64,000 nt of DNA, taken from an uncultured Syntrophaceae bacterium (GTDB taxonomy: Bacteria; Desulfobacterota; Syntrophia; Syntrophales; UBA2192). The stretch covers positions 21,003 to 85,002 of the forward strand of contig CAZJPV010000003.1 in the NCBI GenBank assembly GCA_964547985.1, written 5' to 3'. Position numbers and translations under genes: made by a program. The number at the start of each line of letters is the position of its first letter. The stretch's first letter is position 1. Of this stretch, positions 603 through 48,928 are shown one piece after another. The notes under the pieces are model-generated. The model did not search any database. It was not told the DNA's origin and saw only the letters and a list, made by a program, of their open reading frames with translations.

Positions 603-736
603 CTGCCTTTTCCCTTGGTCTACCTGGAGGATGAAAGGTTTGTAAGCAACCGATGTATTCACACACACGCGGACCGGTTCATGTCCGTGCACTTTCCGCC
701 GTTTCACGAACTAATAAGTTTTCCACCCCGAGAAAG

Positions 737-1486
737 TCAAGCTTTTTTGTCCTTTACGTACCAGTCGATCTGGCGGCAAAGTCCCCGGATCATCTTCACA
801 TCCCGGGAGCGAAGATCAACCCGCGAGAAAAAGCGCCGGACGTTCTGCATCCAGTACTCGGGGTTCTGGGGGTTGATGAACCCTATTCGAACAAAGAGAT
901 CCTTGATCTGGATGTACATTCCTTCCAGTTCCGCCGACATGGCCAGGCGCGGCTTGAACTGCTCGGGTACGGCCGTCGAGGCAAGCAAGATTTCGTAGCA
1001 GACGATCAGGACGGCGTGCGAGAGGTTCAGGGATCTGAGCTTCTCCGAGGTTGGGATGGCGATGAGGGCGCGACAGTAACGCAGTTCATCGTTCGTGAGG
1101 CCGATGTCCTCGGGGCCGAAGAGAATGGCCACCTTGTTCTTCTGCGAAACGTCCACAAGCGTTCTGGCGACCTCCCGTGGACTTCCGGAGGGCTGGCGCA
1201 TGGAGCCGGTCCTGGAGGTGGTCCCCACAACGCAGTGAAAACCGCCGAGCGCCTTATCGAGGCTATCAACAAACCGGATCCGTTCAACGACATCGAGGGC
1301 CAGATGAGTCGACATCTGCCGGATCTTTTCCATATCGGGAGCCTCACGGGTCACAACGATGACATTCTCCATCCCCATGTTCTTCGCACAGCGGGCAACA
1401 GAACCGATGTTTCCCGCGTGTTTGGGTTTGTTGAGAACAAGGGTGATATTCTTTTTTCTGGCCTTGAGCGGTTCCATGTTTTTCAT
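737..1486 (-). CDS. trmJ: SpoU/TrmH-class RNA 2'-O-methyltransferase, TrmJ-like
   Basis: 249 aa. The N-terminus ITLVLNKPKHAGNIGSVARCAKNMG and the later ILFGPEDIGL / IPT...SLNLSHAV are SPOUT methyltransferase motifs. The C-terminal extension is as in TrmJ. Confidence 0.8.
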   Translation of the reverse strand: MKNMEPLKARKKNITLVLNKPKHAGNIGSVARCAKNMGMENVIVVTREAPDMEKIRQMSTHLALDVVERIRFVDSLDKALGGFHCVVGTTSRTGSMRQPSGSPREVARTLVDVSQKNKVAILFGPEDIGLTNDELRYCRALIAIPTSEKLRSLNLSHAVLIVCYEILLASTAVPEQFKPRLAMSAELEGMYIQIKDLFVRIGFINPQNPEYWMQNVRRFFSRVDLRSRDVKMIRGLCRQIDWYVKDKKA

Positions 1487-1549
1487 TGCCCTCCCGTATC
1501 GCCTCTGCTATTTATCCTCACAATCGTCCGTCGAGGAAATCCAGAATTG

Positions 1550-2257
1550 ATGTCCCCTCCCGCAAAAGTAAAGGGCCTTGCAGAACTCCTTTCAGGCTCC
1601 TCCGGCCTCACCGGCCTCACGCCCGGGGATAAGGAAATTTCACTCCTGGAATCATACAGGAAGGAGATCCTTTTCTGGAACAACAAAATGAACCTGGTCT
1701 CCGTCAAGTCCCCTCTCGATATTCCGGTGAAACACTTCATCGATTCTCTAACGGCTGCTCCCTATCTCCCCCGGAAAGACGTCGCGGTGCTGGACATCGG
1801 CGCCGGTGCGGGATTTCCGGGCATCCCGTTGAAAATCTGCATGGGCGCCCTGAAGCTCTGTCTTCTCGAGTCCCAGCGGAAAAAGGCATCCTTTCTCAAG
1901 CACCTTGTCCGTACGCTCGATCTCCATGACGTCACCGTCGTCCACAAACGGGCGGAGGACCTTATTCGTGAAGGGTCTTACAGGGAATTCTTCGATACAG
2001 TGATCTCCCGGGCCACTTTGAAACTCCCGAAGCTTCTCGGGATGGGCAATCATTTCCTCTCCGCCGGTGGCATCCTTATCGCGATGAAGGGTGCCGACGT
2101 TGAAAAGGAACTGCGTGACGCCCTCACGTTCTGCCCATCGAACCGCATGGTCTTTGTTGACAGCCACGCGCTCTCTCTTCCCGAAACGGCCGACCGGCGA
2201 AAAATTCTTGTCTTTAAAAAAACGTGGCCTCCGGGTCTCTCCGGGACCCCCTTCTAG
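1550..2257 (+). CDS. rsmG: 16S rRNA (guanine527-N7)-methyltransferase RsmG (GidB)
   Basis: This is the C-terminal 235 codons of the 653..2257 ORF, starting at ATG 1550 (MSPPAKV...). The SAM motif is VLDIGAGAGFPGIPLKI. The upstream 299 codons are antisense to trmJ and were rejected. Its position next to parAB is classical. Confidence 0.85.
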   Translation: MSPPAKVKGLAELLSGSSGLTGLTPGDKEISLLESYRKEILFWNNKMNLVSVKSPLDIPVKHFIDSLTAAPYLPRKDVAVLDIGAGAGFPGIPLKICMGALKLCLLESQRKKASFLKHLVRTLDLHDVTVVHKRAEDLIREGSYREFFDTVISRATLKLPKLLGMGNHFLSAGGILIAMKGADVEKELRDALTFCPSNRMVFVDSHALSLPETADRRKILVFKKTWPPGLSGTPF

Positions 2258-4245: not shown

Positions 4246-5601
4246 TTGGAACACATCTGGGAAAAAAGCCTTATATTTATTAAGGAAAAAGTTACGCAGC
4301 AAAATTTCGAGACCTGGATCAGCCCCCTCAAGGTCTGCGCTCTTGAAGGCACAACCTGCCAGCTATCGGTGCCCAACAAGTTTTTCAAGGATTGGTTAAC
4401 AGAAAATTATACGGAAATCATCAAGGCTTCCGTATCCAAGGCCAATGGGATGGACATGAAAATTGCTTTTGTTGTGGATAAATCCCCCCCCGAAAAGGGT
4501 GCGGTACCCGAAGAGAGAGAGACGGAAACACAGAGAAAGCCCCCCAAAAAGAGCGATTTGACGAAACTCCGTATTCACCAGTCCCTGAAGCCGAATTACA
4601 GTTTTGACCGTTTCGTCGTGGGACCGAGTAACCAGTTCGCCCATGCGGCGGCACTTGCGGTCGCCGAGCAACCGGCCAGCAACTACAATCCCCTGTTTAT
4701 CTACGGCGGAGTCGGTCTCGGAAAAACCCACCTGTTGAACGCCATCGGCATCCAAACCCTCGCCCTCCACTCGGACAAGAACGTCCTTTACGTATCCGCC
4801 GAGGAGTTCATGAACGAGATGATTAACTCCATCCGATATGACAGGATGCCGAAATTCCGGGAAAAATACCGGAACATTGATTCGCTGCTGATAGACGACA
4901 TCCAGTTCATCGCAGGAAAGGAGAGAACCCAGGAGGAATTTTTTCATACCTTCAACACCCTCCACGATTCTGGCAAGCAGATCGTCGTCACAAGCGACAG
5001 GTTCCCTAAGGATATTCCGAACCTCGAGGGGAGACTGAGATCCCGTTTTGAGTGGGGGCTCATCGCCGACATCCAGCACCCTGACGTGGAAACAAAGATT
5101 GCCATTGTGATGAAAAAGGCCCAGGAAAACAACATCACCATTCACCAGAACGTGGCCTACTACATTGCCTCAAAGTCGGAGTCCAACATACGGGAACTGG
5201 AGGGGTTCCTCATCCGGATTGGAGCCTACGCCTCGCTGACGGGAAGAGAAATCAACATGGATCTCGTGAAGGAGGTTTTGAAAAAGTTCTTCAAACAGGG
5301 TGAAAAACGGGAGACGACCATCGACGAGATCGTCAAGACAGTGGCCGGTAAATTCAACATCAAGATATCAGAACTGAAATCACAGAAGAAAAACAAGAAT
5401 CTCGTCATTCCCAGGCAGATTGCCATGTATCTGTCCCGGAAACTGACCAACCTTTCTTTTCCGGATATTGGTGCCAAGATCGGCGGCAAGGATCACTCCA
5501 CCGTCATATATGCAACAAACAAGGTCAGGGAGCTTTTGGACAGGGATCCGAAGATGATGGCTTCCGTCAGAGAAATCGAAGATATGCTCAACAGGGACTA
5601 A
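4246..5601 (+). CDS. dnaA: chromosomal replication initiator DnaA
   Basis: 451 aa with a TTG start. AAA+ Walker A GGVGLGKTHL, a sensor region, and the C-terminal DNA-binding signature IGGKDHSTVIYA. Confidence 0.97.
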   Translation: MEHIWEKSLIFIKEKVTQQNFETWISPLKVCALEGTTCQLSVPNKFFKDWLTENYTEIIKASVSKANGMDMKIAFVVDKSPPEKGAVPEERETETQRKPPKKSDLTKLRIHQSLKPNYSFDRFVVGPSNQFAHAAALAVAEQPASNYNPLFIYGGVGLGKTHLLNAIGIQTLALHSDKNVLYVSAEEFMNEMINSIRYDRMPKFREKYRNIDSLLIDDIQFIAGKERTQEEFFHTFNTLHDSGKQIVVTSDRFPKDIPNLEGRLRSRFEWGLIADIQHPDVETKIAIVMKKAQENNITIHQNVAYYIASKSESNIRELEGFLIRIGAYASLTGREINMDLVKEVLKKFFKQGEKRETTIDEIVKTVAGKFNIKISELKSQKKNKNLVIPRQIAMYLSRKLTNLSFPDIGAKIGGKDHSTVIYATNKVRELLDRDPKMMASVREIEDMLNRD

Positions 5602-5780
5602 CAACATATTATAACGCTCTATCCACAATTTGTTACTCGTAGAGACGGCAAATTATTAAAAAAAGTTTTTTATGCACAGATTCACAAGCCCTACTACTAA
5701 TCCTAATATTCTTTTAATTAATATATTGTAGTATAAGTATAGCTGTGGACTAAACATTTCAAGAAAAGGAAGGGATCGAG
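5602..5780. other. candidate oriC: DnaA-box cluster plus AT-rich unwinding region in the dnaA-dnaN spacer
   Basis: cTATCCACA at 5619-5627 (8/9). TTATGCACA at 5670-5678 (fits TTATNCACA). agATTCACA at 5678-5686 and TGTGGActa at 5744-5752 are weaker (7/9). A strongly AT-rich tract lies at about 5689-5742. Confidence 0.55.
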
Positions 5781-6899
5781 ATGGAATTCAATCTGAAAAG
5801 AGACGTTTTCCTGGGTGGCGTACAGAGAACACTGGGGGTTGTGGATCGAAGGACGACCATGCCGATCCTCAACAATGTTCTCATTAAGACGGATAGCGAT
5901 AAGATTAAAATTGTGGCGACGGATCGTGAAATCGGTCTTATTGCCGATTACGAGGCCAGGGTTGTCACAGGCGGCGAAATAACGGTAGCGGCGAGAAAAC
6001 TATTTGAAATATTGAGAGAAATGCAGGGGGAACTCGTTCATTTCAAGATGGACGATTCTAACTGGATCCGAATGACCTGTGGAAAGTCGAGTTTCAAAAT
6101 CGCGGGGATGCCTGCGGAGGAGTATCCCAAGGTCCTGGACGATGAGGGGATCCTCTACGTCAAGATGAAAGGGCAGGTGTTTTCCGACATGATCAGCCAG
6201 ACCTTCTTCGCTATGTCGGCGGATGAGACGCGTATCAACCTTAACGGTGTCCTGCTGAAAACAGAGCGCGAAGGGAACAGGATCGATCTGAATATGGTGG
6301 CCACCGACGGGCACCGTCTCGCCATGGTGAGCATACAGCCTGGCATGGAAGCATCGCCGGAGCTGGAACAAGGCATCATCATCCCGAGGAAAGGCATCAA
6401 CGAGATCCGGAAACTCGTGGATGACGGCGAGGAGGAGATCGAGTTCGGTGCGAAGAAGGGCGTCTGCGTCCTCAAGAAAAACAACGTCGTCCTGAAGGTG
6501 AGCCTCATCGACGCGGAGTATCCTGACTACAAACGCGTCATCCCGAAGGACAAGGGGGTAACCCTAGAGCTGGAAAAGGACACCATGATCCATGCGCTTC
6601 GTCGAATGAATGTCATGTCGAGCGAGCGTTACAGTGGCGTAAAAATGAAACTGTTCGAAAACAGGATGGTACTGAATTCTACCAACCCCGATGTGGGAGA
6701 AGCCCAGGACGAGATCGAGGTGGCTTACAAGGAAAAGGAAGCCGAGGTAGGTTTCAATGTCAGGTACCTGCTGGAAGGCATCGAGGCGGTCCACGAAAAG
6801 AAGTTTCTCCTCGAGTTGAGGAATGGCCTGAGGCCTGCCGTTGTGAAACCCCAGGAAGAGCAGCGGTACATGTGCGTCATCATGCCGCTCAAGATATGA
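5781..6899 (+). CDS. dnaN: DNA polymerase III beta sliding clamp
   Basis: 372 aa. Canonical position after dnaA, and the three-domain clamp length fits. The sequence ends with ...MCVIMPLKI. Confidence 0.97.
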   Translation: MEFNLKRDVFLGGVQRTLGVVDRRTTMPILNNVLIKTDSDKIKIVATDREIGLIADYEARVVTGGEITVAARKLFEILREMQGELVHFKMDDSNWIRMTCGKSSFKIAGMPAEEYPKVLDDEGILYVKMKGQVFSDMISQTFFAMSADETRINLNGVLLKTEREGNRIDLNMVATDGHRLAMVSIQPGMEASPELEQGIIIPRKGINEIRKLVDDGEEEIEFGAKKGVCVLKKNNVVLKVSLIDAEYPDYKRVIPKDKGVTLELEKDTMIHALRRMNVMSSERYSGVKMKLFENRMVLNSTNPDVGEAQDEIEVAYKEKEAEVGFNVRYLLEGIEAVHEKKFLLELRNGLRPAVVKPQEEQRYMCVIMPLKI

Positions 6900-9332
<2,433 letters not shown>

Positions 9333-38407: not shown

Positions 38408-39361
38408 TCAGTGGATCGCCCCTCCACAGGTGAAGCCCTGGCCGGCCGTGCAGCCGAAGCAGTGATCGCCGATACGGATTTCCCTTCCCGAAAGCGCATC
38501 CGGGTCGAAATCCCGGATGTGCTGGGGGTAGCCTTCGTGGAGATGGAGTCTCAGGGCCTGGTTGAAGTCGCAATCAAATAGCCTCCCGTCCCACCGGACG
38601 TTGATCAGGTGCCGGCACATGATGCCCTGCACCGTCTCCGGCCTGAAGGCCTTCCTGAGTGTCCCCATGTATTTTTCGAGATGACCTGTCCGGATCAGGT
38701 GGTCACGGAATCGACCGACAGGCATGTTGGAAAAGGTAAAGAGCCTGTTGAAGATGATATCGTATCTTTCTTTCAGTGCCTTTTTATAGGTCTCCTCGAG
38801 GGTAGATTCTGCCGCGGGGAGGAATGCGCCCTCCGGGTTGTAGACGAGGTTCAGCCTCAGGTTCGTGGAATCCCGGCCGAAGCCCATGGCGTTGAGCTGC
38901 TGGAGGGCCCTAATCGACTTCTGAAAGGTTCCCCGGCCCCGTATCGTGTCGACGGTCTCTTCCGTATAACAGGGAAGTGAGGCTGTGATCTCCACGGCCT
39001 GATCCCGGTAAAAATCCGGCAGTTCCTGCCCGATGTCTTCAAAGAATATGGTCAGATTGCTCCGGCATACCACGTGACGGCCGAGCCTTCTTGCCTCGCG
39101 GACGAGGTATTTAAAATGGGGGTTGAGCTCTGGAGACCCCCCGGTGAGATCGAGAACCATAGAGGGGTGTTTTTTGAGAACCTTCAGGACCCATTCGATG
39201 TTCTCCCTGTCCATCAGTTCCACCCGGTCGGGGCCCGCTTGGACGTGGCAGTGCCGGCAGGCCATGAGGCAGCGATAACCGAGGTTGACCTGCATGACCT
39301 CAACCCTGAGCGCCCTGAGCGGGACCATACTGATTTCTGAAAGCTTATCTTTGAATGTCAC
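38408..39361 (-). CDS. radical SAM / Cys-rich C-terminal domain protein, ArsS-like
   Basis: 317 aa. CLMACRHC radical-SAM cluster motif, and a C-terminal CFGCTAGQGFTCGG Cys-rich tail as I recall for the ArsS (TIGR04167-type) family. Confidence 0.8.
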   Translation of the reverse strand: MTFKDKLSEISMVPLRALRVEVMQVNLGYRCLMACRHCHVQAGPDRVELMDRENIEWVLKVLKKHPSMVLDLTGGSPELNPHFKYLVREARRLGRHVVCRSNLTIFFEDIGQELPDFYRDQAVEITASLPCYTEETVDTIRGRGTFQKSIRALQQLNAMGFGRDSTNLRLNLVYNPEGAFLPAAESTLEETYKKALKERYDIIFNRLFTFSNMPVGRFRDHLIRTGHLEKYMGTLRKAFRPETVQGIMCRHLINVRWDGRLFDCDFNQALRLHLHEGYPQHIRDFDPDALSGREIRIGDHCFGCTAGQGFTCGGAIH

Positions 39362-42896: not shown

Positions 42897-43127
42897 TTAC
42901 AGCAACCCCCCCTTTTCCATCAGGCCCATAAGCTTTTTGTACACACCCTGCAGGAGGGATTCGATTGTCTCGTTTTTTTTCCGAAGCGGCAGCCATTCGA
43001 GGAAGTGTTCGTTGTCGGCGATGACTTTTCCTTTCAACTCGTCGAACTGACTCTGAATTTCAGCGGCCTTTTCCAGACCGTATTTTTTTTCATAACCCTT
43101 CAGGGCCCTTTCGAAGGCATCTTTCAT
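42897..43127 (-). CDS. small hypothetical helical protein
   Basis: I prefer ATG 43127 (MKDAFERALKGYEKK...) with GGGGGAGG 6 nt upstream. The track uses TTG 43151. 76 aa. Confidence 0.45.
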   Translation of the reverse strand: MKDAFERALKGYEKKYGLEKAAEIQSQFDELKGKVIADNEHFLEWLPLRKKNETIESLLQGVYKKLMGLMEKGGLL

Positions 43128-43206
43128 TTCAGCCTCCCCCAGCTTCTTCAAAGAAAGCCCGGAGAAACATGGACCTCCGGGCTCTCGAAATGTGTTTGTT
43201 TAACGT

Positions 43207-43518
43207 TTATTTTACCAACTCCGGCTGACCTGAAGGCGGGAACCCGTCGTCGGTCAGCACTTTGACGATCGTCTCGAGATTCGTTTTTTCGTCGTCAAAG
43301 GTTACGACGGCCGTATGCGTAAACTGGTTTACCTGATATTCCTTCACGCCAGGAATCTTTCCCAGGATATAACTTACCCTGCTTGCCGTGGCGGGTCACC
43401 CGCAGTCCGGAATCAGGAGCTTGACCGTTCTGTCAGCCGCGAAAAGGGGCTGGGCCGACATAAACAGGAACATCACGCTCACAAAACCGCTCACCCATAG
43501 GAGTCGTCTTCGCCTCAT
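43207..43518 (-). CDS. exported heavy-metal-associated (HMA/MerP-like) domain protein with in-frame TGA (candidate selenocysteine) in the metal-binding loop
   Basis: Hand translation gives MRRRRLLWVSGFVSVMFLFMSAQPLFAADRTVKLLIPDCG-[TGA 43398..43396]-PATASRVSYILGKIPGVKEYQVNQFTHTAVVTFDDEKTNLETIVKVLTDDGFPPSGQPELVK*. A GGAGG RBS lies 8 nt upstream. The signal peptide ends LFA/AD. The beta-alpha-beta-beta-alpha-beta HMA pattern continues for 62 codons after the TGA. The TGA aligns with the second Cys of the MerP CxxC-P loop. Confidence 0.6.
43363..43381 (-). other. short stem-loop downstream of TGA 43398 (weak SECIS candidate)
   Basis: CAGGG-UAAGUUAUA-UCCUG starts 14 nt after the UGA. An alternative longer pairing is CACG..CAGG / CCUG.CGUG. 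Hand folding only. Confidence 0.25.
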
Positions 43519-43731
43519 AAACAACCTCCTTATTTTTCATTATGATAAACACTGGCTGAGGTAAAATCCAGAGAAATTCGTCTTGAAACGAAAGAAAAAG
43601 CACTCCACCAAAAAATCTTGGCATTTATTCACCCGACCTGATAATTTACCGATGTGATCACCATCCTTTTGTCGGCCTGTATGGGTTGGTATTCAAGGCG
43701 TAAGACTCCGGGATGAAAGAGGGCTTGTGAT

Positions 43732-44634
43732 ATGAATCGCCGTGGATTTCTCAAGAATACCGCCGTGGTCGGAGCGGGGCTCACCCTGCCCGGCGCCTGC
43801 GGGCTTGTCTTCCGCGTGCTCGAGGCCTCGGAAAGAGTGGACCTGGCTGTGGCCCAGGGGGCGGCGCCTTCGCAGATCACGAGGGCGGCCATCGATGTCC
43901 TGGGCGGCATGAAGCGGTTTGTGACCAAGGGGGATGTCGTTGTCGTGAAGCCCAACATCGGGTGGGACCGCACGCCGGAATACGCTGCAACCACCAATCC
44001 CGAGGTTGTCGGGACGATCGTCAAGATGTGCTACGAGGCCGGTGCAAAAAAGGTCAGGGTTTTTGATCGGACGGTGAGCGATTCCCGAAGATGTTACAAG
44101 CAGAGCGGGATCGCCGATGCGGCGGGTGCTGCCGGCGCCGAGGTGAGTCATATCGACGACAGGAAGTACAGGGACGTAAAGATGAACGGGCTGGCTCTGA
44201 AGTCGTGGCCCCTCTATGCGGATGTTCTGGAGGCCGACAAGGTCATCAATGTCCCCATCGCTAAAGACCATGGCCTGTCGAAACTCACCCTGGCCATGAA
44301 GAACTGGATGGGCGTAATGGGTGGATGGCGGAGCCGGATCCACCAGAATATCGATGAAAGTCTCGTCGATATCGCCAGAGCCGTCAAGCCGACACTCACG
44401 GTCCTCGATGCGGTCAGGATCCTCACGGCGAACGGTCCCACGGGTGGAAGCCTCAGCGATGTCAAACGGCTCAACCTCGTTGCCGTCGGCACCGATCAGG
44501 TGGCCATCGACTCCTTCGGTGCGACCCTCTTCGGCTTCAAGGGCAGTGATCTCGGTTATGTCCGGCTGGGAGCGAAGGCCGGCCTCGGCGTGATGGATCT
44601 TGCGAAACTCAAGATCAAAAAGATTCAGGTATGA
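43732..44634 (+). CDS. Tat-exported DUF362 domain protein
   Basis: 300 aa. Twin-arginine signal MNRRGFLKNTAVVGAG. The DUF362-type core (VVVKPNI.W......TNPEVV..IV) is shared with 47885 and 51547. Confidence 0.85.
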   Translation: MNRRGFLKNTAVVGAGLTLPGACGLVFRVLEASERVDLAVAQGAAPSQITRAAIDVLGGMKRFVTKGDVVVVKPNIGWDRTPEYAATTNPEVVGTIVKMCYEAGAKKVRVFDRTVSDSRRCYKQSGIADAAGAAGAEVSHIDDRKYRDVKMNGLALKSWPLYADVLEADKVINVPIAKDHGLSKLTLAMKNWMGVMGGWRSRIHQNIDESLVDIARAVKPTLTVLDAVRILTANGPTGGSLSDVKRLNLVAVGTDQVAIDSFGATLFGFKGSDLGYVRLGAKAGLGVMDLAKLKIKKIQV

Positions 44635-44667: not shown

Positions 44668-46224
44668 ATGATCAAGAACATACGTAGAGCCTCCCAGGCG
44701 ATCTTTCTCTTCCTTTTCCTGTTCCTCTTCAGACAGACCGAATCAAAGGGGTATGACGATCTCGGCTATCCCGTCCGGCTCTTTCTCGACTTCGACCCTC
44801 TCGTTTTCATCACGACCGTGCTGGCATCCCACACCGTTCCCCTCGCCTTTTACCTCTCGGTTATCCTGATCGTGTTCACCATTTTTCTGGGCAGGGTCTT
44901 CTGCGGGTGGGTCTGCCCGCTGGGGACGCTGAACAACATGATGGGTACCTTACGGAAGGCGCGCCCCATCGGCGACCGGAGGCGTCTCTACCGCTGGAAA
45001 TATTATATTCTCCTTTTTATTCTCGCAGCCTCCCTTTTCAGGCTACATCTCACGGGTATTCTCGACCCGTTGTCGCTTCTCATCCGGTCTCTGTCGGCCA
45101 GTATTTACCCCCTGTTCAATTATGCAGTGAGGTCCTTCTTCGACACGATTTTCCACTGGAATCCCCCGATCATTGTTCAGGGGTCGGAATTCCTCTATGA
45201 CCTTTTGAAAAGAAGTGTTCTTGCCTTCGAACAGCCCCTCTTTGTCCAGAGTGCCTTCATCGGCCTTCTCTTTCTGGCCGTTCTGGGTTTGAATCTCATC
45301 GAGAGGAGGTTCTGGTGCAAGTTTCTCTGTCCGCTCGGCGCACTCCTCGGGATCCTGTCCCGCTACGCCCTCCTTCGCAGGTCGCTCGGCGAGGGCTGTG
45401 ACGCCTGCGGGGCCTGTGAGACGATCTGCCAGGGTGGCGCGATCCATGATGGAGACCGGTGGGAGTCGGGCGAATGCCTCTACTGCATGAACTGTGACGA
45501 TCTCTGCCCGAGGAACGCCGTCTCCTTCGGATTCTCCACCAGGGGGACGCCGGCGGCGCTCAATCTGGGAAGGCGCAACGTCCTGATCGCCTTCGCCTCC
45601 GGCATTGTGTCCGTGCCGCTCATCAGGACGACGGCCCATTCAAAACCCGGCTATGTGAACCCCAGGCTCATCCGCCCCCCGGGCGCGCTGGAAGAGCGGG
45701 AATTTTTGAGGGCCTGCATCAAGTGCGGGGAATGTATGAAGGTTTGCATCACCAACGGCCTTCAGCCCACCCTTTTAGAGGCGGGTCTGGAGGGGATCTG
45801 GTCACCAATCCTGATCCCGCGGATCGGCTACTGCGAATACCGCTGCACGCTCTGTGGGCAGGTCTGTCCGACGGGCGCCATCGCGAGGCTCAAACTGGAG
45901 GCAAAACAGCAAGTCAAAGTCGGTCTTGCCATGATCGACGAAGGGCGTTGCCTTCCCTACGCACATGCAACGCCCTGTATAGTCTGCCAGGAGGCCTGTC
46001 CCACCTCCCCGAAAGCCATATGGCTCGAGGAGACCAACGTGAGAAACCGGGAGGGACGGGTCATCCGTGTGAAGCGGCCGCGTGTGGACCTCGAGCTTTG
46101 CATCGGCTGCGGGATCTGTGAAACCCTCTGCCCCGTGATGGGCCAGCCGGCGATTTACGTCACCAACGTGGGCGAATCAAGGTCCAAAACAAACCAGCTT
46201 CTCCTCCCGGGGGCGGCGAAGTGA
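44668..46224 (+). CDS. membrane-bound polyferredoxin, NapH/MauN-like N-terminal domain plus multiple 4Fe-4S motifs
   Basis: 518 aa. TM helices with repeated FCGWVCPLGTL / WCKFLCPLGAL motifs. The C-terminal part has CxxCxxCxxxC(P) clusters (CDACGACETIC, CMNCDDLCP, CIKCGECMKVC, CTLCGQVCP, CIVCQEACP, CIGCGICETLCP). Confidence 0.85.
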   Translation: MIKNIRRASQAIFLFLFLFLFRQTESKGYDDLGYPVRLFLDFDPLVFITTVLASHTVPLAFYLSVILIVFTIFLGRVFCGWVCPLGTLNNMMGTLRKARPIGDRRRLYRWKYYILLFILAASLFRLHLTGILDPLSLLIRSLSASIYPLFNYAVRSFFDTIFHWNPPIIVQGSEFLYDLLKRSVLAFEQPLFVQSAFIGLLFLAVLGLNLIERRFWCKFLCPLGALLGILSRYALLRRSLGEGCDACGACETICQGGAIHDGDRWESGECLYCMNCDDLCPRNAVSFGFSTRGTPAALNLGRRNVLIAFASGIVSVPLIRTTAHSKPGYVNPRLIRPPGALEEREFLRACIKCGECMKVCITNGLQPTLLEAGLEGIWSPILIPRIGYCEYRCTLCGQVCPTGAIARLKLEAKQQVKVGLAMIDEGRCLPYAHATPCIVCQEACPTSPKAIWLEETNVRNREGRVIRVKRPRVDLELCIGCGICETLCPVMGQPAIYVTNVGESRSKTNQLLLPGAAK

Positions 46225-47884: not shown

Positions 47885-48928
47885 ATGGCGCCAAAAGTCT
47901 ATTATTCCAAACGGATCGATTCAGAGACGATCCGGACCGTTTTTGAAAGTGCCCTCGCCGATGCCAAGAGGAAGATTACAAAAGGTGATGAGGTGGCTAT
48001 CAAGGTCCATTTCGGGGAGAAGGGCAATACGTGCTATGTCTCCCCCGGGCACATCCGGCCGGTCGTCGAGGCGCTCAAGCCTCTCGAGGGAGAAGTTTTT
48101 CTGACCGATGCGAACACCCTTTACAGGGGAATGAGGCTCAACGCCACGGACCACCTGAACATTGCGAAGGAGCACGGGTTTGAAGCCCTGAAAACGAAGA
48201 TCGTCATCGCCGATGGCCAGTCCGGCGAAGAGGAGGAGGAAGTGGGGATCCCGGGCAGGATCTTCTCGAAGGTGAAGGTTGCGAAGCGCATTGCGCGGGC
48301 GAACGCCATCATCGTCATATCCCACTTCAAGGGACATATCCTCTTCGGTTTCGGCGGTGCCATCAAGAACCTCGGCATGGGTTGCGGCTCCCGGGCCGGC
48401 AAACTGGAGATGCACTCCAAGATAAAGCCCACTGTGAACGCGGACTGCATCTCCTGCGGCCAGTGCGTCGAAAATTGCCCGGCCGATGCGATTTCCATGC
48501 GGGATGATGAAAAGGCGATCATCGAGCCCGATCGCTGCATCGGCTGCGCGGAGTGCATTGCCATCTGTTGCAATGAAGCCATTGAGATTCCGTGGCACGG
48601 CGCAACCAGTCTTGAAGCGATGGAGCGATGCGCGGAATATGCCCTCGGGGCGGCAAAGGGCAAGACCTGTGTCTGTGTCAATTTCGTCAATCACATCACG
48701 AAAGACTGCGATTGTATGCCCGATTCGGAGGTCATCGGTAAGGATGTGGGTCTGGTCGCATCGGCAGACCCGGTGGCCTGTGACCAGGCCTCATTCGAGC
48801 TCGTTTTGAAAAACGAACGAAACGTAGATATTTTCAAGAAAGCGACTCACGTCGACGGAACGCATATTACAAGATACGGGACGACCATCGGCCTGGGGGA
48901 GATTCATTATACGCTTGTGGAGCTGTAA
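47885..48928 (+). CDS. DUF362 domain protein with an inserted 2x[4Fe-4S] ferredoxin domain (cytoplasmic)
   Basis: 347 aa. CISCGQCVENCP and CIGCAECIAICC motifs. The DUF362 core is related to 43732 and 51547. Confidence 0.85.
   Translation: MAPKVYYSKRIDSETIRTVFESALADAKRKITKGDEVAIKVHFGEKGNTCYVSPGHIRPVVEALKPLEGEVFLTDANTLYRGMRLNATDHLNIAKEHGFEALKTKIVIADGQSGEEEEEVGIPGRIFSKVKVAKRIARANAIIVISHFKGHILFGFGGAIKNLGMGCGSRAGKLEMHSKIKPTVNADCISCGQCVENCPADAISMRDDEKAIIEPDRCIGCAECIAICCNEAIEIPWHGATSLEAMERCAEYALGAAKGKTCVCVNFVNHITKDCDCMPDSEVIGKDVGLVASADPVACDQASFELVLKNERNVDIFKKATHVDGTHITRYGTTIGLGEIHYTLVEL

Follow-up and report, generated by a model that had tools for sequence, protein, structure and literature searches.

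A conserved in-frame TGA in an uncultured Syntrophaceae bacterium points to a small exported selenoprotein with a MerP-like heavy-metal-associated fold

A 64,000-nucleotide stretch of contig CAZJPV010000003.1, from an uncultured Syntrophaceae bacterium, was analyzed at its full length and is called the window here. On its minus strand lies a 103-codon open reading frame (ORF) with a single in-frame TGA. We assign a probability of about 85% to the reading that the ORF is intact and monocistronic and encodes a small exported selenoprotein with a heavy-metal-associated (HMA) fold, closest to MerP, with the binding of a thiophilic metal as its likely role. That the gene encodes a genuine selenoprotein is highly probable from sequence comparisons. 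A metal-binding or chaperoning role, which is based on the fold and on chemistry, is favored by a modest degree. A first-pass annotation, made from the letters of the window, had already proposed a selenoprotein, and the proposal is supported by the conservation of the TGA, by pairs of selenocysteine (Sec) and Cys forms, by a covarying hairpin and by a MerP-like fold. The protein is a variant of the HMA-fold selenoproteins, set apart by its predicted export, its shifted C-x-U motif, its spread and its mis-annotation, and it brings no conceptual surprise.

The coding sequence occupies positions 43207..43518 (-), from an ATG at 43518 to a TAA stop at 43209..43207. It has 103 sense codons, including the lone in-frame UGA at codon 41 (43396..43398 on the minus strand, read as 43398..43396), which is the predicted Sec41. 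The ribosome-binding site AAGGAGG, read from the sequence at 43525..43531 (-), is separated from the ATG by a 6-nt spacer. The read-through translation, MRRRRLLWVSGFVSVMFLFMSAQPLFAADRTVKLLIPDCG*PATASRVSYILGK...ELVK, is identical to that of the first-pass annotation, whose 103-codon ORF, GGAGG-type ribosome-binding site and single TGA were all confirmed. The same annotation stated that ordinary gene tracks miss the gene. Indeed, the mechanical ORF list holds it only as two pieces of 42 and 46 aa; in public assemblies with this locus, a 40-aa fragment is called, and JGI calls also give a 46-aa fragment. Two codons ahead of the UGA, the TGC of Cys39 (43402..43404, -) supplies the partner residue of the C-G-U motif. 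A terminator-like hairpin with a 13-bp GC-rich stem, an 8-nt loop and a U-rich 3' side was found 21 nt past the stop (43153..43186, -). It folds at -25 kcal/mol (z = -4.6), a stability reached by 0 of 200 shuffled sequences, and it was not listed by a consensus terminator scan. Because the gene has its own ribosome-binding site and this hairpin after its stop, it looks monocistronic. TGA serves as the ordinary stop for 12 of the 20 window genes; therefore, the genetic code is standard.

The conservation of the TGA was examined in two scans. In the scan of one genome per GTDB species, with confirmation by tblastn, four species-representative metagenome-assembled genomes (MAGs) had the same in-frame TGA. 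A Lac Pavin deltaproteobacterium MAG (90% identity) and a Syntrophales MAG (78% identity) both read DCG-TGA-P, and a Syntrophaceae MAG and another deltaproteobacterial MAG, at about 35% identity, read GCSA-TGA-G and GCSS-TGA-G. The metagenome scan yielded 386 confirmed relatives, and the 80 best were retained. The comparison set comprised 87 loci plus the window (loci are designated by L numbers and protein records by P numbers). At the site of the window TGA, 57 genes of this set (56 besides the window gene) have TGA and 31 have Cys. The TGA-bearing genes encode 53 distinct proteins with pairwise identities of 25 to 99% (median, 39%), and all of them stay in frame and are conserved after the TGA up to a common C-terminal tail, P-x-[WYFML]-[VLI]-K. 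The recurrence of one TGA at 56 independent loci far exceeds chance. MAGs of Syntrophales and Smithellaceae are the nearest relatives.

The TGA-bearing proteins fall into three motif classes: C-x-U, to which the window protein belongs, C-x-x-U, and G-x-U without a cysteine in the mature protein. The partner Cys column is kept in all clades but that with G-x-U. Five loci form the Cys-less clade (L047, L048, L068, L076 and L084, with the gene at about 5001-5320 in each), in which the partner Cys is replaced by Gly in the sequence NLPSGG-U-GEPQ; L047 differs within the clade and reads RGD-U-C. Since L048, L068, L076 and L084 have this replacement and a mature protein without any cysteine, Sec is their only Cys-like residue. 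Cys forms matching the C-x-U proteins at the TGA column include SCLCQ (L033-36 and L060) and GCGCP (L074, the same as P0055), and a CxxC form, L044 (GCRPCG), pairs with the CxxU forms. An exhaustive HMMER search with the window segment after the TGA, covering 1.84 billion representative proteins, added P0016 (ACDCP) and P0008 and P0088 (both ECEC). Therefore, two expectations of the first-pass annotation held: orthologs at 56 other loci keep the TGA and the frame downstream of it, and Cys homologs (P0016, P0008, P0088, P0055, L033-36, L060, L074 and, for the CxxU forms, L044) align across it.

Downstream of the UGA, a hairpin resembling a bacterial selenocysteine insertion sequence (SECIS) was found at 43363..43381 (-). 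Its 7-bp stem, CAGGGUA/UAUCCUG, is formed by positions 43381-43375 and 43369-43363 and closes the apical loop AGUUA (43374-43370), with a spacer of 14 nt after the UGA and 21 nt between the UGA and the loop. Every TGA-bearing sequence has such a hairpin of 6 to 8 bp with a G-containing apical loop, located at a fixed position, the codons R-[VI]-x-x-[IT]-L with which helix alpha1 begins. We made an anchored alignment of 51 distinct hairpin sequences, which MAFFT aligned without gaps. Standard pairs filled 95.0% of the cells of the 7-bp helix, versus 27.7 to 43.4% when the 3' partners were slid by 1 to 3 columns. Changes on both sides occurred at 6 of the 7 helix pairs (51 cells), and no shuffle reached the observed covariation score. 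The G of the apical loop was the sole invariant column, and RNAalifold alone recovered the 5 central pairs of the helix. Published criteria for bacterial SECIS elements (PMC13188914) ask for a loop of 3 to 9 nt, a stem of 4 to 16 bp, a G in loop positions 1 to 2, a distance of 16 to 37 nt from the UGA and a minimum free energy of -7.5 kcal/mol or lower. All 51 sequences lie within the limits for loop, stem, G position and spacing, and 39 of the 51 also reach the energy cutoff, computed on the minimal 24-nt hairpin. The window hairpin passes throughout (7 bp, AGUUA, 21 nt, -7.7 kcal/mol). The equivalent region had a median energy of -5.1 kcal/mol in the Cys homologs versus -9.1 kcal/mol in the TGA forms, a difference whose P value (Mann-Whitney, 2e-9) is only indicative because the sequences are related. 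A downstream stem-loop had been named as a check in the first-pass annotation, and the family does have one, conserved and covarying. The codon position of the hairpin stays constant while the UGA of the CxU class and that of the CxxU class lie one codon apart, with 21 to 22 nt from UGA to loop in the former and 18 to 19 nt in the latter; this is a natural experiment on the tolerance of SECIS spacing.

The N terminus of the protein has the features of a signal peptide. Residues 1 to 27 (43438..43518, -), as read from the translation, comprise MRRRR, a hydrophobic core and PLFA/AD, of the type used by the general secretory pathway and without a lipobox. Family-wide, the N termini have equivalent n-h-c regions that end in A-x-A ahead of [AK][ED][RK]-[TIV]-V. 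We infer that the protein is exported through the general secretory translocon and cleaved after Ala27, and the signal peptide claimed in the first-pass annotation fits this pattern, which is kept across the family.

Residues 36 to 90 (43249..43413, -) constitute an HMA domain with the order beta-alpha-beta-beta-alpha-beta. With U entered as C, the read-through protein matched Pfam PF00403 at 34.6 bits, above the cutoff of 24.8 (E = 2.5e-8). A family-specific C-terminal tail, G-x-P-x-[WYF]-[VLI]-K, makes the last strand, beta4. As a structural proxy, we used the AlphaFold2 model of the Cys analogue P0016, which has C-D-C-P in place of C-G-U-P and is 50% identical to the window protein after the TGA. 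The mean predicted local distance difference test score was 85, with values above 90 in the core, and the model contains strands at 28-35, 57-63, 68-74 and 94-99 and helices at 43-53 and 80-89. Its motif residues C38 and C40 both lie in the beta1-alpha1 loop (36-42), ahead of helix 43-53, so Sec41 of the window protein is placed by the model in this loop. A Foldseek search with the model gave MerP, 1osd_A, as the top PDB match (target-normalized TM score of 0.95; root mean square deviation of 1.1 A), followed by 1afi and then by HMA domains of copper ATPases; TM scores to HMA structures ranged from 0.84 to 0.95. The PDB sequence search with HMMER also had MerP, 1osd and 1afi, at the top. The Pfam match, the P0016 model and the Foldseek result thus all point to the HMA/MerP-like fold predicted in the first-pass annotation.

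One detail of that annotation had to be revised. It placed the TGA at the second Cys of GMxCxxC-P. In the HMMER comparison with MerP of the PDB and in the MAFFT family alignment, both ungapped through the motif, the Sec of the CxU class lies over Cys14 of MerP, the first Cys of GMTC14xxC17; the partner Cys of the family lies over the Met of MerP, and the second Cys of MerP faces Thr. The canonical GMxCxxC is not found at the beta1-alpha1 junction of the window protein, where the motif reads P-D-C-G-U-P. Judged from these alignments, the motif is a C-x-U shifted by two residues toward the N terminus, located in the same loop as in MerP and in a register other than that of GMxCxxC.

MerP (TIGR02052; 1osd and 1afi) was compared with the window protein feature by feature. 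MerP has a signal peptide, and one is predicted for the window protein; both have a single HMA domain of about 72 to 76 residues in the mature form and a TFDDxKT core, and TIGR02052 is the best NCBIfam match of the window protein, at 56.9 bits, which is below the cutoff of 92.55. Unlike MerP, the window protein has Sec, with the C-x-U pair two residues N-terminal of GMTCxxC, an alpha1 side of the motif that is two residues longer, and the tail G-x-P-x-[WYF]-[VLI]-K, which MerP lacks. MerP is encoded in a mer operon with merT, merA and merR, whereas none of these genes was found at the window locus or at the related loci examined.

Known selenoproteins resemble the window protein in part. NF041115 describes a small protein of the HMA type whose metal-binding motif contains Sec, but it has two Sec residues (UxxU), a 74-position model and no signal peptide, whereas the window protein combines one Sec and one Cys with a predicted signal peptide and scored 21.1 bits against a cutoff of 95. 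NF045683 (MerT/CopZ fusion-like) and the MerT-family selenoproteins (PF02411) are likewise selenoproteins of mercury or heavy-metal trafficking. The window protein scored 38.1 bits against the NF045683 cutoff of 375, with residues 27 to 96 aligning weakly to its HMA part (model positions 159-228). Those proteins are membrane proteins with a MerT domain, in contrast to the window protein, which is predicted to be soluble, exported and single domain, with 103 aa. Periplasmic selenoproteins of known function include the catalytic subunits of formate dehydrogenase and [NiFeSe] hydrogenase. These also end up outside the cytoplasmic membrane, but they are large, cofactor-bearing proteins exported in folded form by the twin-arginine translocation (Tat) system, whereas the window protein is an 8-kDa protein with a signal of the general secretion type. 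In E1-E2 P-type ATPase selenoproteins (PMC13188914, PMC2398784), a Cys of the HMA metal-binding loop is likewise swapped for Sec. In these large pumps, the HMA domain is cytoplasmic and the motif, UxxC, begins with Sec, while the window protein would be a free periplasmic protein with CxU. The first-pass annotation called a Sec-containing metallochaperone-like protein unusual. It is less unusual than was supposed there, since HMA selenoproteins as such are already known from NF041115, NF045683 and the E1-E2 ATPases.

In public databases, the family is present in truncated or altered form. A word-indexed protein search with the read-through sequence gave no match. Sec forms are deposited as C-terminal fragments of 43 to 62 aa that start just after the TGA (P0003, P0004, P0010, P0028, P0038 and P0041), and 46-aa fragments in cluster 7 bear the name "copper chaperone CopZ." Some full-length records have W at the Sec position: P0013 (GCVWPG), P0014, P0027 (CSSWP) and P0097 (CFSWG). 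P0013, P0027 and P0097, together with the 98-aa cluster mates of P0097, occur only on ENA contigs of 504 to 943 nt, and P0014 was called by JGI/IMG on a contig of 1,720 nt. On long contigs (up to 111 kb), the P0097 cluster appears as 45-aa fragments annotated either as "hypothetical protein [Smithella sp.]" or as "exonuclease VII small subunit," and the NCBI copies from Smithellaceae and Smithella in this cluster are only 45-aa "hypothetical protein" fragments. Most likely, the W forms are artefacts in which TGA was translated under code 4 on short contigs, and they could mislead homology-based annotation.

A 2026 catalogue of prokaryotic selenoprotein families (PMC13188914) has no exported PF00403/MerP-like entry, and in Haft's 2022 survey MerP figures solely as an ordinary protein. 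Apparently, the family is uncatalogued, and it matches no NCBIfam selenoprotein model, although a very recent description may exist. A selenoprotein named "Mercuric transport protein MerP" in the 2008 Global Ocean Sampling study (PMC2398784, Dataset S1) was considered as prior art and rejected because it has no HMA fold. The entry consists of two identical 33-residue reads, HHARTSAPAGTUCQSGVQAVPATDQAHGDVNEC. Its assignment seems doubtful, and it is absent from the 2026 catalogue (PMC13188914).

The genes around the HMA gene were then considered. Downstream on the same strand are a conserved 76-aa ORF, genes for a POR-type 2-oxoacid:ferredoxin oxidoreductase, hisF and a radical SAM gene. Upstream and divergent lies a gene for a DUF362 protein (43732-44634, +) with a textbook Tat signal, MNRRGFLK (MNRRGFLKNTAVVGAGLTLPGA), followed by a gene for a 518-aa NapH-like polyferredoxin with two Fer4_5 domains (44668-46224, +). 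This pair looks like a periplasm-facing redox module, and its arrangement is common to the window clade and the approximately 40%-identical NCE-U-P clade (L019, L021 and L031). A second DUF362+Fer4 gene is at 47885-48928. In other clades, the selenoprotein gene adjoins unrelated genes, namely, Maf, YggS-like, Lgt, TRAP DctM, multihaem cytochrome and cytochrome c' genes. In the Cys-less clade, the neighbor at L047 is a convergent CDF cation-efflux gene (Pfam Cation_efflux and ZT_dimer), and L048 has a 304-aa ORF in the corresponding position.

The 76-aa ORF (42897-43127, -; MKDAFERALKGYEKKYGLEKAAEIQ..., with the ribosome-binding site GGGGGAGG) lies between the HMA gene and the POR-like gene. 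It had no match in Pfam, has homologs at L001, L019 and L031, appears among the gene calls of public assemblies and overlaps the upstream ATG (42996) of a 635-aa POR ORF. Since public calls give the POR gene 542 aa, the mechanical ORF list probably places the POR start too far upstream. Elsewhere in the window, dnaA, dnaN and gyrB stand in a row at 4246-9332 (+); therefore, the window spans the chromosomal replication-origin region. The dnaN and gyrB genes share a frame and are split by a TGA and 24 nt, which is an ordinary gene boundary and no recoding site. A 534-aa ORF at 653-2257 (+) matched RsmG, the 16S rRNA m7G527 methyltransferase, in residues 333 to 495 only, its first 330 or so residues had no NCBIfam match, and it may have a wrong start or be a fusion.

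Several observations weigh against the selenoprotein reading or its functional part. Neither tRNA-Sec nor selA, selB or selD was found within the 64-kb window (ARAGORN, and NCBIfam on 20 large ORFs); ARAGORN reported zero tRNAs of any kind there, and Rfam gave no family match in the window. A second selenoprotein gene was not convincingly seen in the window either, among the single-TGA read-through candidates listed, with the subset outside larger ORFs inspected. The case for Sec decoding in the source genome is therefore made from lineage and comparative evidence. The whole region downstream of the TGA in the window copy is no more stable than shuffled sequences (z = -0.9). For this reason, energy is not treated as primary evidence, and the case for the hairpin is carried by its position, its covariation and the SECIS criteria. 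The hairpin also sits in the codons of the conserved R-[VI]-x-x-[IT]-L helix, and protein constraint accounts for part of its sequence conservation. Several compensatory changes, however, combine a synonymous third-position change on one arm with an amino acid change on the other, as in GUA..UAU of the window versus GUC..UGG of the NCE-U-P clade, and such coupled changes are, from the sequences compared, what an RNA constraint predicts. As for function, a metal-binding role is proposed here with a noncanonical motif and outside a mer or cop context, since no mer or cop operon was found in the window or at the related loci examined; both the role and the metal are putative.

The Sec competence of the source lineage is deduced from its Syntrophales and Smithellaceae relatives. 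Syntrophus aciditrophicus, for example, has 19 selenoproteins, including SelD (PMC1794560). The window itself holds a radical SAM + DUF3641 gene of the TIGR04167 type (38408-39361, -) that ends in ...GFTCGGAIH-TGA; it has Cys (GFTCGG) where selenoprotein relatives have Sec. The TIGR04167 family includes selenoprotein members (GxxU).

Could the TGA be a real stop, so that the locus is a pseudogene, encodes a 40-residue peptide or contains a sequencing error? Gene callers do end at the TGA, and Sec machinery was not seen in the window. We regard this as scarcely credible, as the same TGA column recurs at 56 independent loci with a downstream protein conserved down to 25% pairwise identity, the downstream part has neither a start codon nor a ribosome-binding site, and the covarying SECIS-type hairpin occurs only where the TGA is present. 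Nearly as improbable is the decoding of the UGA as Trp, Gly or Cys, through an alternative code or SECIS-independent read-through. The public full-length records with W (P0013, P0014, P0027 and P0097) would suit this explanation, but these W forms come from short contigs and the P0097 cluster is fragmentary on long ones, which fits gene calling under code 4. Moreover, TGA ends 12 of the 20 normal genes of the window, Cys is the only alternative at the TGA column, and each TGA comes with a SECIS-type hairpin.

With the selenoprotein gene accepted, alternatives to the proposed function were weighed. A true MerP orthologue, the periplasmic part of a mercury-resistance system with Sec in the place of one Cys, is very unlikely. 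MerP is the best match in NCBIfam, among PDB sequences and in structure, and the predicted signal peptide and the mature size of about 72 to 76 residues agree as well. Nevertheless, the TIGR02052 score is well under its cutoff, merT, merA and merR were not found near the window gene or at the related loci examined, GMTCxxC is replaced by the shifted CxU/CxxU, and the family tail is absent from MerP. We also consider it unlikely, though to a lesser degree, that C-x-U is a redox centre (selenenylsulfide/selenol), with the protein acting as a periplasmic electron or chalcogen carrier, possibly tied to the DUF362/polyferredoxin pair. Motifs such as CxU and CxxU typify redox sites in many families of selenoproteins (PMC13188914). 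Synteny of the divergent pair is kept between two clades that share only about 40% identity, genes for a multihaem cytochrome and for cytochrome c' are among the neighbors in other clades, and the loci examined showed no metal-resistance operon. Against this, the fold is that of HMA/MerP and not thioredoxin-like, and an Se-S couple within the molecule is not universal because Sec is the only Cys-like residue in L048, L068, L076 and L084. In addition, the Cys-less clade member L047 adjoins a CDF cation-efflux gene, and the DUF362 synteny is divergent rather than operonic and absent in other clades.

In the preferred reading, that of an exported metal-binding selenoprotein, the UGA at codon 41 would be read as Sec, with the hairpin 14 nt downstream acting as the SECIS element that recruits SelB with Sec-tRNA(Sec). 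The 27-residue signal peptide would then route the unfolded chain through the general secretory pathway. In the periplasm, the mature protein of about 76 residues may fold so that Cys39 and Sec41 lie side by side in the beta1-alpha1 loop, as suggested by the model of the Cys analogue. At neutral pH, a selenolate is deprotonated, and its binding of soft metals is tighter than that of a thiolate. The thiolate-selenolate pair could thus bind a thiophilic metal ion, and the protein would serve as a periplasmic chaperone or scavenger. In sulfidic habitats, which offer little free metal, such tight binding of soft metals by the selenolate would be an advantage.

As a tentative and broader proposal, the window protein may be the first recognized member of a widespread periplasmic selenoprotein family in syntrophic Desulfobacterota, with a new kind of HMA site (a shifted C-x-U/C-x-x-U, or a lone selenolate in one clade). 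Its role would be the high-affinity capture or the hand-over of trace thiophilic metals in sulfidic, metal-starved habitats, or selenol redox chemistry linked to DUF362/polyferredoxin, and not mercury detoxification. The family is systematically mis-annotated, as "hypothetical protein," as "copper chaperone CopZ" or with the TGA as Trp, and a dedicated family model would mend dozens to hundreds of gene calls in Syntrophales/Smithellaceae genomes and metagenomes. The 51 SECIS hairpins, which vary naturally and keep a fixed codon position, form a useful set for studies of SelB recognition beyond Escherichia coli. To our knowledge, small exported selenoproteins are rare. A periplasmic HMA site with a thiolate-selenolate pair or a lone selenolate would be a simple system for the effect of selenium on extracellular metal binding, with relevance to trace-metal acquisition and to the handling of mercury and copper in methanogenic syntrophic communities.

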